Made by a program: the position numbers and the translations under genes. The notes beneath the pieces are model-generated. The model was not told where the DNA came from. It worked only from the letters and a program-made list of their open reading frames with translations, and ran no database searches. A stretch of DNA of 64,000 nt from an uncultured Rickettsiales bacterium (lineage in GTDB: Bacteria > Myxococcota_A > UBA796 > UBA9615 > CAYRNR01), in assembly GCA_964584075.1 (NCBI GenBank), contig CAZOYV010000001.1, forward strand, positions 25,701 to 89,700. Reading direction: 5' to 3'. Shown in pieces: positions 50,959 to 57,455 of this stretch. Position 1 is the first letter of the stretch. Each line of letters opens with the position of its first letter.

Positions 50959-51837
50959 CTACCTCGTCCAGGGTGTGGACGGCTCCTGGGCCGGCCGCCC
51001 GATCAGGCGCGCGACGACGACCGCGCGGTCGCTGCCCTCCGACCACCGCTGGCCGGCGTGGCCGCCGAGCACCGCGAGCACGTCGAAGTCCCACTGGCCG
51101 AGCTGGGCCTCGAGCCACCGCAGGTCGACGCGGTACAGGTCCAGCGTGCACTCACGCGCCTCGATCAGCCTGCCGCTGACCGGATGGACCCGGCTGTACC
51201 GCTGGCGGATCTGGACCACGGTCCCGTCGATCGACGGATGCTCGAAGACCGTCTTGTCCACGACGTGACCGTAGGGCCCGACGCGGAACGTGCTGCGGGT
51301 GGCCTCGCGACCGCCGCCGGGAGCGGTGCGACCGGGGGAGGCGAGGTCGAGGATCAGCAGCCCGCCGGGGACGAGGTGCGCGGCGCAGCGCGCGAGGCAC
51401 GCCGCCTGGGGTGTGGGTCCGGGGAGCAGCTGCAGCCCCGAGAACGGGATCAGGATGGCGTCGAACCGGCGCGGGAAGCGGAACGACACCATGTCCTGCT
51501 GGGAGAACCGCAGGCGCGCCGCCACGTCGCCGGGCAGCCGGCGGCGCCGCGTCCGGGCCCGGCGGATCATCGACGCCGAGCGATCCAGGCCCATGACCCG
51601 CAGCCCGGCCTGCGCCATCGGGATCGCCACCCGGCCGGTCCCGCAGCCGAGCTCCAGGACGTCGCGGCAGGGGCCGTGATCGGCCAGCAGCCGCAGGGTC
51701 CCGGCGACGTCCGCCGTCGCGGCGGCGTACTCGGCGTCGTAGGTCGCGGCCAGCCCCCGGTAGGGATCGGCGACGGGCGGGACCGGCGGCGGGTCGGCGG
51801 ACCCGGGCTCACCCCCGGTCCGAGAGCGGCTTGCCAT
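50959..51837 (-). CDS. Class I SAM-dependent methyltransferase
   Basis: VLELGCGTGRVAIPMA (motif I), DAILIP... and GGLLILD blocks. The last gene of the minus-strand operon. Confidence 0.7.
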   Translation of the reverse strand: MASRSRTGGEPGSADPPPVPPVADPYRGLAATYDAEYAAATADVAGTLRLLADHGPCRDVLELGCGTGRVAIPMAQAGLRVMGLDRSASMIRRARTRRRRLPGDVAARLRFSQQDMVSFRFPRRFDAILIPFSGLQLLPGPTPQAACLARCAAHLVPGGLLILDLASPGRTAPGGGREATRSTFRVGPYGHVVDKTVFEHPSIDGTVVQIRQRYSRVHPVSGRLIEARECTLDLYRVDLRWLEAQLGQWDFDVLAVLGGHAGQRWSEGSDRAVVVARLIGRPAQEPSTPWTR

Positions 51838-53377
51838 AGATCACCCGCGGATCGCCCGGCCCGTGGAAGTCGCGCAGCTCCGCCTCGCGGGCGTACTGCA
51901 TCGACTCGTAGAACCGCCGCGTGGCGCGGTAGCTGTCCTTGCCCGAGGTGTCGACCTCGAGGTGCGTGGCGCCCAGCGCCCGGGCGCGGCGCTCGGTCTC
52001 GGCGAGCAGCACGCGGCCGATGCCCCGTCCGCGCAGCGAGCGTTGCACGGCGATCCAGTACAGGTCGAACCGCGACTCCGTCCCCGGGACCGGGCCGTAG
52101 CAGGTGAAGCCCACGAGCTCGCCCGCGAGGCGCGCCACGAGGAAGTGGTAGCCGCTGCGCGGCCCGCTCCGCACCGCCTCGTCGAAGACCTCCATCGCCA
52201 TCTGGATCTCGGCACGCGAGAAGGCGCGGTCGTCCTCCACGATCCAGCGGATCGCGCGCCGGTCCACGTCCTCGACGCCGTCGTCGAGCTGGAGGTCGCC
52301 GCGCGGCAGCCCACCGGCCGGCCTGGCCGGGGGCCGGGGCGGTACCTTGGCGGCGCCGGGGAGCCGGGGGTGCGGCCGGCGACGGGACGGCTCCGGGCCC
52401 ACCGCGGCGTCGACGATCATCCCGACCAGGTCCTCGTAGCCGTACCCCGCCTCGCTGGCCGCGGCGGCCAGGCCCGTGTCCGGCGACAGGCACGGGTTGG
52501 CGTTGACCTCGAGGATGAACGGCCCGCCCTCGCGCGAGACCCGGAAGTCGACGCGGGCGTACCCGCGCAGCCGGAACGCGTGGCAGCATTCCAGCGCCAG
52601 CTCGTCGAGCTCGGCGAGCAGCCGGCGGTCCTCCTCGCCGAACGCGAAGCTCCGCACGGTCCCGCGGTACTCCGGGGAGGCGTGGTGCCACTTGGCGCGG
52701 AAGCCGACGATGCGGGGCTTGCCCCGGGGGAACTGCTCGAACCGGATCTCGGCCGCCGGCAGCACCTGCCAGCCGCCCGGGCGCTGGACCAGCGAGAGGT
52801 TGAACTCCCGGCCGGCGACGTAGGTCTCCACGAACGCGGCGCCGCCGAGATCCTCGCGGCGCGCCTCGACGACCTCGCGGATCCGGGACGCCGCGTCGAC
52901 GGGCAGCACCGAGTCGTCGTCGAGGCCCACGGAGGCGTGCTCCCACACCGACTTGACGATCACCCGGTCCCCGGTCAGGGCACCCAGCGCCGGGGGGTGC
53001 TGGTCGTCGGACCAGTCCGGGACCGGGAGCCCGTGCAGGCGCATCCACGTCTTCGCGACCAGCTTGTTGGAGGTCAGGTACAGCGGGTCGGTCGGCGAGC
53101 CGGTGTAGGGCAGCCGCAGGTGGTCCAGCAGCGCCGGGACGAGGTGGACCAGCCGGCCCGTGCCCGCGAGGGTCTCCACCAGGTTGACCACCACGTCGGG
53201 CCGCGCCGCGAGGAGCTCGCGACGCACCCGGGCCAGGTCGAGATCGGCGGCCTGGCAGCGGACGTCGTGCCCGGCGGTGCGCAGCGCCCCGGCGACGGCC
53301 TCGGCCTGGACCAGCGTGTCCTGGTCGTCGGGGCCCGCGCCCGCGTCCACGCGGCTATGCAGTACGACGGCTCGCAT
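51809..53377 (-). CDS. Fusion of an ATP-grasp ligase (D-Ala-D-Ala ligase family) and a C-terminal GNAT N-acetyltransferase
   Basis: N-terminal pre-ATP-grasp/ATP-grasp blocks (LVAKTWMRLHGLPVPDW, FVETYVAGREFNLSL, RVDFRVSREGGPFILEVNANP). C-terminal GNAT (VGFTCYG...IAVQRSLRGRGIGRVLLAETERRARALG). Confidence 0.7.
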   Translation of the reverse strand: MRAVVLHSRVDAGAGPDDQDTLVQAEAVAGALRTAGHDVRCQAADLDLARVRRELLAARPDVVVNLVETLAGTGRLVHLVPALLDHLRLPYTGSPTDPLYLTSNKLVAKTWMRLHGLPVPDWSDDQHPPALGALTGDRVIVKSVWEHASVGLDDDSVLPVDAASRIREVVEARREDLGGAAFVETYVAGREFNLSLVQRPGGWQVLPAAEIRFEQFPRGKPRIVGFRAKWHHASPEYRGTVRSFAFGEEDRRLLAELDELALECCHAFRLRGYARVDFRVSREGGPFILEVNANPCLSPDTGLAAAASEAGYGYEDLVGMIVDAAVGPEPSRRRPHPRLPGAAKVPPRPPARPAGGLPRGDLQLDDGVEDVDRRAIRWIVEDDRAFSRAEIQMAMEVFDEAVRSGPRSGYHFLVARLAGELVGFTCYGPVPGTESRFDLYWIAVQRSLRGRGIGRVLLAETERRARALGATHLEVDTSGKDSYRATRRFYESMQYAREAELRDFHGPGDPRVIYGKPLSDRG

Positions 53378-55883: not shown

Positions 55884-56042
55884 ACGGGCGCGGACGACGG
55901 AGAACGTCGCCATGGGTGGGTCTGGCGGCCGGGGCCGGCCCCCCCGGCGCGTCTCGACGGCCGGTCGCGAGGGAACCGCGCGTTCCCTCTGCGCGGTGGG
56001 AGTGAACTCGCGGTTCCCTCCCGCCGGCTCCGCGGGCGGGGG

Positions 56043-57455
56043 TCAGGACCCCGGGTGATCGCGGCGGTGGAGCCGGTGGCGGGCCATCAGCTTGTGCAGC
56101 TGGCGCAGCCCGACGCCCGCGGCGTCGGCCACCTCGGCGAGCCGCCCCCCCCGCTCCTCGAGCAGGGCGACGAGGTAGCGGCGCTCGAGCCGCAGCAGGT
56201 GGGCCTCGCGGAACGCCGCCAGCGACAGCGAGGTGTCCACCGCGGCGGGGCCCGGGCACGCCTGCGCCCCCATCAGCTCGGCGGGGAAGCTGTCCGGGGA
56301 GAGGCGGTCGGAGGTCTCGAGGATGAACGCCCGCTCGATCAGGTTCTCGAGCTCGCGGACGTTCCCCGGCCACGGGTACCCGGCCAGGGCCTGCACGACC
56401 GCCGGGTCCAGCCCCGCGATGTCCCTGGGATCGCTGCGCTGCAGCCTCGCCAGGATGCCGTGGACGATCGCCGGGATGTCCTCGACGCGCTCGCGCAGCG
56501 GGGGGATGTGGATCGGGAACACGCTCAGGCGGTAGTAGAGGTCCCAGCGGAAGCGGCCCTCCTCGCACTCGCCCTTGAGGTCCGCGTTGGTCGCGGCGAT
56601 CAGCCGGACGTCCACGTGGATCGGCTTGTCGCCCCCGACGCGCTGGATCGTCCGCTCCTGGATCACGTGCAGCAGCTTGACCTGCGCCGAGGGGGTCAGC
56701 ACCGCGATGTCGTCGAGGAAGATCGTCCCGCCGCGGGCGATCTCGAAACGGCCCAGCTTGCGCCGCACGGCGCCGGTGAAGGCGCCCTTCTCGTGGCCGA
56801 ACAGCTCGCTCTCGATCAGGTTGTCGTGGACCGTCCCGCAGTGCACCACGATGAACGGGCCGTCCGCGCGGGTCGAGTGCTGGTGGAGCAGCTGGGCCAG
56901 CGTCGACTTCCCCACGCCGGTCTCGCCGGTGAGCAGCACCGTGGTCGTCGAGGGGGCGACCCGGCGGATCTGGTCCAGCGTCTCCTGCATCGCCGGGCTG
57001 CGGGAGGACGCCACCTCCGGCGCGGCGGTCTGCAGCACCCGGCCGCGCAGGTACTGCAGCTCGTGCTGGAGCGTCTCGAGCTCCCGCAGGCTCTCCGTCA
57101 CGTAGCGCAGCTCCGCGACGTCGATCGGGGTCGTCAGGTAGTTGCTCGCCCCGGCCTGGACCGCCTTGACCGCCTCGCGCAGCAGGGCCGGCGCGGTGAC
57201 GATGATCAGGTGCCCCGTGGTCGCCCCGTTCCACCGCGACTGGACCTCGTCGAGGTAGGCCGCCGGGTGCAGCCGGCCATCGCCGCCGACCACCGCCTCG
57301 AGGGCCAGGAAGCCCAGCTCGGGGCGCAGGCGATCCGCATCCTGCAGGAGGGCGTCGGGGGTCTGCGCGGCGACGATCTGGACCCCGCCGGGGAAGGCCA
57401 GCCGGATGACCTCCCGGTCCGCCTCGTCGAGGCCACACACGACGATCGACTTCAC
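56043..57455 (-). CDS. Sigma-54-dependent transcriptional activator (NtrC family EBP) with an atypical or degenerate receiver domain
   Basis: GETGVGKS (Walker A), ESELFGHEKGAFTGA (GAFTGA), RLIAATN (R-finger region) and a C-terminal HTH. The N-terminal receiver-like domain reads SIVVCGLDEAD rather than the canonical DD...D. Confidence 0.85.
   Translation of the reverse strand: MKSIVVCGLDEADREVIRLAFPGGVQIVAAQTPDALLQDADRLRPELGFLALEAVVGGDGRLHPAAYLDEVQSRWNGATTGHLIIVTAPALLREAVKAVQAGASNYLTTPIDVAELRYVTESLRELETLQHELQYLRGRVLQTAAPEVASSRSPAMQETLDQIRRVAPSTTTVLLTGETGVGKSTLAQLLHQHSTRADGPFIVVHCGTVHDNLIESELFGHEKGAFTGAVRRKLGRFEIARGGTIFLDDIAVLTPSAQVKLLHVIQERTIQRVGGDKPIHVDVRLIAATNADLKGECEEGRFRWDLYYRLSVFPIHIPPLRERVEDIPAIVHGILARLQRSDPRDIAGLDPAVVQALAGYPWPGNVRELENLIERAFILETSDRLSPDSFPAELMGAQACPGPAAVDTSLSLAAFREAHLLRLERRYLVALLEERGGRLAEVADAAGVGLRQLHKLMARHRLHRRDHPGS

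Follow-up and report, generated by a model that had tools for sequence, protein, structure and literature searches.

In bacteria, beta-lysine is known chiefly in four roles: as a precursor of osmolytes, as an intermediate of fermentation, as a building block of antibiotics and as the modifier of EF-P. Another small solute, N-acetylglutaminylglutamine amide (NAGGN), is reportedly synthesized by Ngg, a bifunctional protein with GNAT and ATP-grasp domains, acting together with AsnO. A KamA-family lysine 2,3-aminomutase combined with a GNAT is the known route to N-epsilon-acetyl-beta-lysine (Pfluger 2003, as cited in PMC3543383), and the AblA and AblB enzymes of this kind occur in methanogens, green sulfur bacteria and some Firmicutes. 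Here we analyzed an operon in a 64-kb stretch (GC 72-75%) of contig CAZOYV010000001.1 from an uncultured Rickettsiales bacterium; this whole stretch is called the window. Its GC content and its complement of Ser/Thr kinases and EBPs (sigma-54 enhancer-binding proteins) hint at a Myxococcota-like genome. The operon encodes a KamA-family aminomutase, two ATP-grasp enzymes resembling D-alanine-D-alanine ligase (Ddl1 and Ddl2), the second of which is fused to a GNAT, and an S-adenosylmethionine (SAM) methyltransferase, and these genes are preceded by a small open reading frame (ORF) and by the gene for a sigma-54 enhancer-binding protein (EBP). KamA, a Ddl-like ligase and a Ddl-like ligase with a GNAT constitute a conserved cassette. 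The best explanation, which we hold tentatively, is that the operon makes a beta-lysine-derived, amide-capped, cytoplasmic small peptide or amide under sigma-54/EBP control.

In its logic, the cassette appears to resemble the synthesis of N-acetyl-beta-lysine and of NAGGN, and its proteins fell outside the family models of both. As in AblA/AblB, a KamA-family aminomutase is co-transcribed with a GNAT, and what they make is probably a derivative of beta-lysine that is charge-neutralised and cytoplasmic. The cassette differs in its shorter KamA subtype with an N-terminal EPP[G/S] tail, in a GNAT unrelated to AblB at the family level and in its two obligatory ATP-grasp ligases, to which the window adds the methyltransferase and sigma-54 control. 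The best curated model for KamA was AblA (TIGR03820), but its score of 461.3 bits lay below the cut-off of 525.4 bits, as did those of three orthologues (L001, L002, and L004; 469-485 bits). AblB (TIGR03827) was matched neither by the fusion at E ≤ 0.01 nor by a stand-alone GNAT orthologue at E ≤ 1e-5, and the link to ablAB drawn in the original prediction is reduced to an analogy. Ngg is said to share with the cassette an ATP-grasp peptide ligase and a GNAT in one polypeptide, and to give an N-acetylated dipeptide without the ribosome or a non-ribosomal peptide synthetase; in the cassette, however, the domain order is reversed, the ATP-grasp domain is Ddl-like rather than RimK/cyanophycin-like, NCBIfam models of the NAGGN trio found no match, there is no amidotransferase, and a radical SAM aminomutase would supply the substrate. 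The EpmB/EpmA pair also has a short KamA-type aminomutase without a C-terminal zinc domain that feeds beta-lysine to an ATP-dependent ligase, whereas the ligases here are ATP-grasp enzymes and a GNAT is present. The EpmB model scored 262.7 bits on KamA (cut-off 369.3 bits), and no gene for EpmA, the LysRS paralogue, was present in the operon or the related loci. On the features compared, the cassette belongs neither to the AblAB nor to the EpmAB system.

The operon and its conserved cassette

All six ORFs named in the original prediction were recovered at the same coordinates on the minus strand by ORF listing and Pfam/NCBIfam scans (Table 1), and the same protein sequences exist as independent gene calls in a public protein collection. 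The domain assignments made for them, including TIGR00238, Dala_Dala_lig_C, Acetyltransf_1 and a methyltransferase model, held up in the Pfam and NCBIfam scans. Gaps of 215 nt (EBP gene to small ORF) and 86 nt (small ORF to kamA) are followed by overlaps of 4, 23, and 29 nt, such that the last four genes (kamA, Ddl1, Ddl2/GNAT, and the methyltransferase) overlap one another. Neither a sigma-70-like promoter nor an intrinsic terminator was found within positions 50500-57800, and the claim of a single transcription unit is supported by both the overlapping junctions and the absence of internal signals in that interval. The downstream neighbor is an S41 peptidase gene that converges from the plus strand, and the methyltransferase gene is therefore the end of the operon. 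The operon itself is real.

The unit that is conserved is smaller than the five-gene arrangement originally proposed: it consists of KamA, a Ddl-like ligase and a Ddl-like ligase with a GNAT, with or without the small OB-fold protein encoded by the small ORF, and it is widespread across phyla. When the window proteins were compared by tblastn with 83 distinct loci, KamA, Ddl1, and Ddl2/GNAT were all found in 61, in the same order and on one strand in 60 of the 83. These collinear loci span more than eight phyla and their stop and start codons commonly overlap. In 12 loci, several of which lay at the ends of contigs, Ddl1 and Ddl2/GNAT had no kamA next to them, and the fusion occurred alone in 10. 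The GNAT was fused to the ligase in 54 of the 83 loci and was a separate downstream ORF in the others. KamA orthologues were 52-76% identical across phyla, and Ddl1 orthologues 50-71% (median 56%). No homologue of the methyltransferase was present in any other cassette locus compared; contrary to its proposed role as a component of the system, it is a lineage-specific addition.

The ATP-grasp-GNAT fusion family contained 4480 proteins at E ≤ 0.001 among the candidates examined, and a scan with one genome per species placed fusion relatives in at least 597 species genomes. The best 120 relatives were full-length fusions with about 41-59% identity, named merely "D-alanine-D-alanine ligase" or "GNAT family N-acetyltransferase," and mean column identity over 14 diverse members of the family was 55%. 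The carriers were mostly anaerobic bacteria. The best 80 included Desulfobacterota (Smithella, Syntrophus, Desulfobacterales, Desulfacinum, and Desulfonauticus), Planctomycetota, Kiritimatiellia, Lentisphaerae, Bacteroidales, Clostridia, Sphaerochaeta, Thermoanaerobaculia, Gammaproteobacteria, and Bacteriovoracaceae, from habitats that include peat, aquifers, lakes, digesters and marine sediments. No NCBIfam equivalog (release of June 2026) covers any cassette member beyond the generic KamA subfamily, and full-text literature searches found no paper that links an aminomutase with these ligases or describes the cassette, in agreement with the original view that the combination is not a described system. 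The enzyme families themselves are ordinary; no description was found of their conserved combination, of this KamA subtype or of the motif in its tail. The many species that carry the cassette include syntrophs, sulfate reducers, Planctomycetota, Kiritimatiellia and Bacteroidales. In them it would represent a further use of beta-lysine, and it would give a function to a large family annotated only as ligase or acetyltransferase, including the orphan structure 2R7H.

Clustering of the neighbors of related loci revealed neither a universal extra partner gene nor a linked exporter or transporter, and only clade-specific synteny (fpg, PhoU-like/Pit, diaminopimelate/ornithine decarboxylase, and EBP genes). 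The gene of the diaminopimelate/ornithine decarboxylase family lay downstream in six loci, of Smithella type where checked, and is consistent with lysine supply. In Syntrophaceae-type loci (L087-L089, L059, L063, and L027), the gap between small ORF and kamA was 220-270 nt, far longer than the window's 86 nt, a divergent fpg/mutM gene lay upstream, and genes for a PhoU-like protein and a PHO4/Pit phosphate transporter lay downstream, which is probably clade synteny.

Table 1. Positions in the window of the operon genes and of the candidate regulatory elements.
Feature	Position	Strand	Details
Sigma-54 enhancer-binding protein (EBP)	56043..57455	-	470 aa; Sigma54_activat E 1e-65, AAA_lid_14 1e-21
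Two GGGAAC-N5-GTTCCC palindromes, candidate upstream activator site	55971..56018		Unique pair in window
Sigma-54 type -24/-12 promoter TGGCACGGCCGATGCA	55868..55883	-	1 mismatch to TGGCAC-N5-TTGCW
Small OB-fold protein	55519..55827	-	102 aa; predicted fold; cassette accessory
KamA-family radical SAM/PLP lysine 2,3-aminomutase, short cassette subtype	54347..55432	-	361 aa as called; TIGR00238
Stand-alone Ddl-like ATP-grasp ligase (Ddl1)	53355..54350	-	331 aa; Dala_Dala_lig_C E 2e-23
Ddl-like ATP-grasp-GNAT fusion (Ddl2/GNAT)	51809..53377	-	522 aa; Dala_Dala_lig_C E 3e-14 and Acetyltransf_1 E 6e-13
Class I SAM methyltransferase, last operon gene	50959..51837	-	292 aa; Methyltransf_25 E 1e-17

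Proteins of the cassette and the methyltransferase

KamA of the window scored well above the TIGR00238 cut-off (335.8 vs. 199.2 bits) and matched the lysine 2,3-aminomutase of C. subterminale (PDB 2A5H) with 423 bits; the glutamate- and arginine-aminomutase models scored below the lysine model. Its CATYCRYC segment aligned with C125, C129, and C132 of 2A5H, the CxxxCxxC Fe-S/SAM motif, and R134, D293, D330, and K337 were conserved. We take the three cysteines to hold the Fe-S cluster, R134, D293, and D330 to bind lysine, and K337 to be the lysine that carries pyridoxal phosphate (PLP). Among 59 full-length orthologues, the Fe-S motif, R134 and D293 were present in all 59 and D330 and K337 in 56, and the aminomutase residues on which the original prediction had staked its reading were thus kept. 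With every substrate, PLP and Fe-S residue intact, the predicted conversion of lysine to beta-lysine has good support. The zinc-site residue C268 of 2A5H is an aspartate in the window, and the C-terminal CxCxxC zinc motif was found in none of 56 orthologues. The window protein ends 24 residues after K337, compared with 31-54 residues in most orthologues (at most 99) and 79 in 2A5H. KamA of the cassette is a distinct subtype that keeps the lysine, PLP and Fe-S residues and has no C-terminal zinc motif.

KamA orthologues also carry an N-terminal extension of about 55-75 residues that is unconserved save for a short acidic diprolyl motif, EPP[G/S]. This motif was present in 50 of 62 KamA tails ([DE]PP in 56 of 62), was sometimes duplicated, and lay a median of 61 aa before the W-x-DW-x-WQ motif where canonical KamA begins. 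Neighboring ORFs contained EPP[G/S] only twice in 159,581 residues (0.0125 per 1000 aa), and the EPP motif was not found upstream of cassettes without an adjacent kamA. In the window, an alternative in-frame GTG start at 55531, which aligns with the ATG of the L004 orthologue, would overlap the stop of the small ORF by 13 nt and would add a shorter tail (55433-55531) with the degenerate motif GGPPE; the L004 tail has DRPPE. PPG and PPE are strong EF-P-dependent stalling motifs. The tail is a concrete, testable oddity of a radical SAM enzyme predicted to make beta-lysine.

The two ligases are paralogues (about 23-32% identity) whose closest solved structures are Ddl enzymes (E about 1e-21 for Ddl1 and 1e-12 for Ddl2). 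Neither is a true D-Ala-D-Ala ligase by the best Ddl model of NCBIfam, which scored 134.4 bits on Ddl1 and 91.7 bits on Ddl2 against a cut-off of 243 bits. Compared with a provisional E. coli DdlB reference sequence, both ATP-grasp domains keep K97, K144, E180, K215, R255, D257, E270, and N272. By the same provisional reference, Y216 is replaced by A or E in Ddl1 and by W in Ddl2, S150 is lost in both, and the EGSSVG motif has become EGTGKG in Ddl1 and EHASVG in Ddl2. The cassette ligases thus share with Ddl/Van enzymes the fold and the ATP/Mg catalytic residues, and presumably the chemistry of acyl-phosphate formation followed by amine attack, and they differ in scores at about half the family cut-offs, in the loss of the omega-loop Tyr216 and of Ser150, and in a context that is not cell-wall related. 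We read both domains as amide ligases that are active, but not on the substrates of D-Ala-D-Ala synthesis.

At E 2e-31, the GNAT domain matched PDB 2R7H, a structure that bears the name "putative D-alanine N-acetyltransferase"; its matches to the RimI, HaaN, and STAT models were weak. The best NCBIfam model for the methyltransferase was a daptide N-methyltransferase (96 bits, cut-off 175 bits), which lends weak support to action on an amine, as the daptide family acts on a peptide amine.

The small ORF had no Pfam or NCBIfam match. A profile built from nine cassette-linked copies retrieved 338 clusters, all hypothetical and without a Pfam domain; an earlier profile of two sequences had given only 25 matches among 1.8 billion representatives. 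One or two copies lay directly upstream of kamA in 10 of 62 distinct kamA-carrying loci, some of them with signal peptides, and three further members of the family, looked up blind, all lay directly before KamA-Ddl-Ddl-GNAT. An AlphaFold2 model from 32 sequences was a compact OB domain of high confidence, whereas a model from two sequences was unusable (predicted local distance difference test score of 46). A fold search with the small-ORF model gave generic OB-fold matches and no functional assignment, and the C-terminus was not conserved across relatives. The small OB-fold protein is thus an accessory specific to the cassette. Several loci, most of which have an EBP gene nearby, also encode OB-fold paralogues that are predicted to begin with a signal or membrane segment and whose genes are placed between kamA and the gene for the cytoplasmic copy (L001 5203-5493, L021 4518-4814, L075 5221-5529, and L077 4891-5475).

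Sigma-54 promoter and activator

The EBP has an AAA+ domain with the GAFTGA motif, a C-terminal helix-turn-helix and a degenerate, receiver-like N-terminus, whose Response_reg match of 16.7 bits was below threshold. The promoter ends 40 nt before the GTG start of the small ORF, which carries a GAGGAG ribosome-binding site. The window contains three -24/-12 matches with at most one mismatch where about one is expected, and the promoter of the operon gains weight because of its position, the adjacent EBP and the two upstream palindromes. These GGGAAC-N5-GTTCCC palindromes, one perfect (55971-55987) and one with a single mismatch (56002-56018), are arranged in tandem 31 bp apart in the interval that separates the EBP gene from the promoter. 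They begin 88-135 nt upstream of the -24 element, a distance expected of activator sites, and were the only two matches in the window (0.08 expected by chance). They are candidate binding sites for the adjacent EBP, and the palindrome was not found in any related cassette locus.

The nearest relative, L004, whose proteins are 59-76% identical, has TGGCACGGGCGCTGCA 43 nt before its small ORF. EBP homologues (42-52% identity) were encoded near the cassette in L001, L033, L057, L075, and L077; in the three Desulfobacterota loci with an adjacent EBP homologue (L001, L075, and L077), a -24/-12 element lay 41-113 nt before the first small ORF. Near-consensus -24/-12 elements occurred upstream of kamA in 7 of 62 cassettes, about eight times the background density, and sigma-54 control is therefore a recurrent minority variant and not universal. 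The sigma-54/EBP arrangement of the original prediction thus holds for the window, with its -24/-12 element near the first gene and its adjacent GAFTGA-bearing activator, but does not extend to most relatives as a part of the system. Riboswitches, including Na+ and c-di-AMP types, gave no Rfam matches at gathering thresholds in the window and 18 related loci. The sigma-54/EBP version in the window offers a handle on the inducing signal.

A second sigma-54-type promoter in the window, TGGCACGGCGGGTGCA (47570..47555, minus strand), is followed by GGAGG and a GTG at 47521 and heads a four-gene set (41880-47640, minus strand). The set comprises a thrC-like PALP enzyme (47521..46406; 421 bits to the "threonine synthase" model PRK06381, cut-off 266 bits), a protein resembling DUF1611/DgcN (46400..45303), a protein of 782 aa with a creatininase domain at its C-terminus (45306..42958) and an enolase-superfamily protein like a racemase or dipeptide epimerase (42947..41880). 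Upstream of it lies the palindrome CCGGAAGC-CGT-GCTTCCGG (47640..47622), which is unlike those of the operon, so a different activator is likely. No member of this set accompanies the cassette in other loci.

Possible products and rival explanations

Gene content and order, conserved residues, promoter geometry and the conservation of the cassette are observed; what the ligases act on, where acetyl and methyl groups are added, what is made and what it does in the cell we infer. The operon would be the host lineage's version of a widespread, uncharacterised beta-lysine cassette. It would be transcribed as one unit from the sigma-54 promoter, with the adjacent EBP as its activator and the two palindromes as the probable sites of activation. 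KamA would convert free L-lysine to beta-lysine, and the two paralogous ATP-grasp enzymes would each form one ATP-dependent amide bond, one at the carboxylate of beta-lysine and the other onto a beta-lysine amine or the growing peptide. The GNAT would acetylate the remaining free amine and, in the window organism only, the methyltransferase would add N-methyl groups. Beta-lysine has one carboxylate and two amines, and the cassette would supply exactly as many activities that form amides, through its two ligases and its acetyltransferase. The OB-fold protein would be an accessory to the pathway. The outcome would be a small cytoplasmic compound that contains beta-lysine and has its charges capped, either a di- or tripeptide or an amide, made when the EBP senses a stress or nutrient signal. 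An intracellular product is favored because no exporter or transporter is consistently linked.

Several points weigh against this explanation. No cassette enzyme has been characterised, and the substrates of the ligases are not readable from sequence. A -24/-12 match by itself is weak evidence at the GC content of the window, and no rpoN gene was recognised among those window ORFs that were examined. Short relatives of KamA, EpmB among them, yield (R)-beta-lysine, and KamA of the cassette could yield either form. A classical osmolyte role is not specifically supported and is not favored, because many carriers come from non-saline peat, aquifers and lakes and because Na+ and c-di-AMP riboswitches were not found in the loci searched. 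Finally, the EPP[G/S] tail and the dedicated OB-fold protein would be superfluous to a simple soluble-metabolite pathway and hint at protein-protein or protein-templated chemistry.

A possible, though unlikely, form of such chemistry is that a protein carboxylate receives lysine or beta-lysine from the ligases, or serves as the base on which they assemble the product, and that the GNAT caps the adduct. The acceptor could be the acidic KamA tail, the OB-fold protein or a translation factor, as in the beta-lysylation of EF-P; analogues are the LysW/LysX amino-group carrier systems, RimK and EpmA, and ATP-grasp enzymes that act on acidic protein tails have precedent. The fixed distance of the tail motif from the catalytic core within otherwise unconserved sequence, its absence from cassettes without an adjacent kamA, and the specific tie of the OB-fold protein to the cassette speak for protein-linked chemistry, as do the closest curated relatives of the GNAT, which are, weakly, peptide or protein N-terminal acetyltransferases (RimI and HaaN). 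Yet the ligases are Ddl-like and not RimK/LysX-like, KamA retains its binding residues for a free epsilon-ammonium and alpha-carboxylate, the window and its nearest relative have only a degenerate motif, the OB-fold protein is missing from most cassettes and has no conserved C-terminus, and there is no EpmA-like gene. A broader proposal, which we consider improbable, is that the cassette is an unrecognised, widespread beta-lysine system of anaerobes with its chemistry organized on protein. The KamA tail would serve as a docking or acceptor peptide for the ligases, in a LysW-like tethered synthesis, or as an EF-P-sensitive XPPX stalling element that couples beta-lysine to translation; the OB-fold protein would be the partner, and the beta-lysine conjugate that results would represent a new class and would carry N-methyl groups in the lineage of the window. 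A carrier role for the tail is purely hypothetical. The cassette shares with microviridin-type graspetide and LysW/LysX systems the number and type of tailoring enzymes and possibly ATP-grasp enzymes that make use of an acidic stretch of peptide (here the KamA tail), and differs from them in its ATP-grasp subfamily and in having no leader/core precursor, protease or exporter.

The remaining rivals are less probable still. An ablAB-type osmolyte pathway, in which KamA and the GNAT make N-epsilon-acetyl-beta-lysine, with the ATP-grasp domains accessory or regulatory, is quite improbable: it draws on AblA as the best model for KamA, the presence of a GNAT, and a Desulfoglaeba cassette near genes for an MscS-type channel and CorA, and it leaves two ligases with seemingly intact catalytic residues, conserved in almost every locus, in a minor part. 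The sub-cut-off AblA scores, the GNAT outside the AblB family, the riboswitch search and the non-saline habitats of many hosts also count against it. A graspetide-like RiPP (a peptide made by the ribosome and modified after translation) is very unlikely. MdnB, MdnC, and MdnD of microviridin comprise two ATP-grasp ligases and a GNAT, which the cassette matches by count; the small ORF, which precedes the enzymes, or the KamA tail would be the ribosomal precursor, and the best model for the methyltransferase is a RiPP enzyme. The small ORF, however, is predicted with high confidence to be a folded OB domain and is absent from most cassettes, the Ddl-type ligases matched no graspetide ligase model at E ≤ 0.01, no protease or exporter is linked, and KamA keeps its free-lysine binding residues. 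Least probable of all, and largely refuted by gene content, is that the genes serve catabolism, by fermenting lysine via beta-lysine, or housekeeping, by supplying the cell wall with a second D-Ala-D-Ala ligase. KamA is the first enzyme of lysine fermentation, some sources annotate the ligases as D-alanine-D-alanine ligase, and sigma-54 control of kamA has been reported in Bacilli (PMC12316311). Genes for beta-lysine 5,6-aminomutase, the dehydrogenase, the cleavage enzyme and the ammonia-lyase were neither in nor next to the operon nor recurrent in related loci, the low Ddl scores and the loss of Y216 and S150 disfavor a cell-wall ligase, and neither role explains the tight coupling to a GNAT.

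The remaining neighbors of the operon lie on both of its sides. On the upstream side of the EBP gene, ORFs of 317 aa (57600-58553, minus strand) and about 617 aa (58821-60672, plus strand) had no Pfam match at E ≤ 0.001. Farther away in the window, two large ORFs that converge on each other (11558-14086, plus strand, and 14083-17280, minus strand) both encode a PPDK_N domain, of the PEP-utilising, ATP-binding kind, to which one of them adds a nucleotidyltransferase domain. Beyond the methyltransferase gene, a 69-aa ORF (48324-48533, plus strand) with a gene-like GC content at third codon positions (0.94) and no family match precedes the S41-family peptidase gene (48599-50944, plus strand), which encodes a secreted protein of 781 aa with weak PDZ matches and stops 14 nt from the 3' end of the operon.

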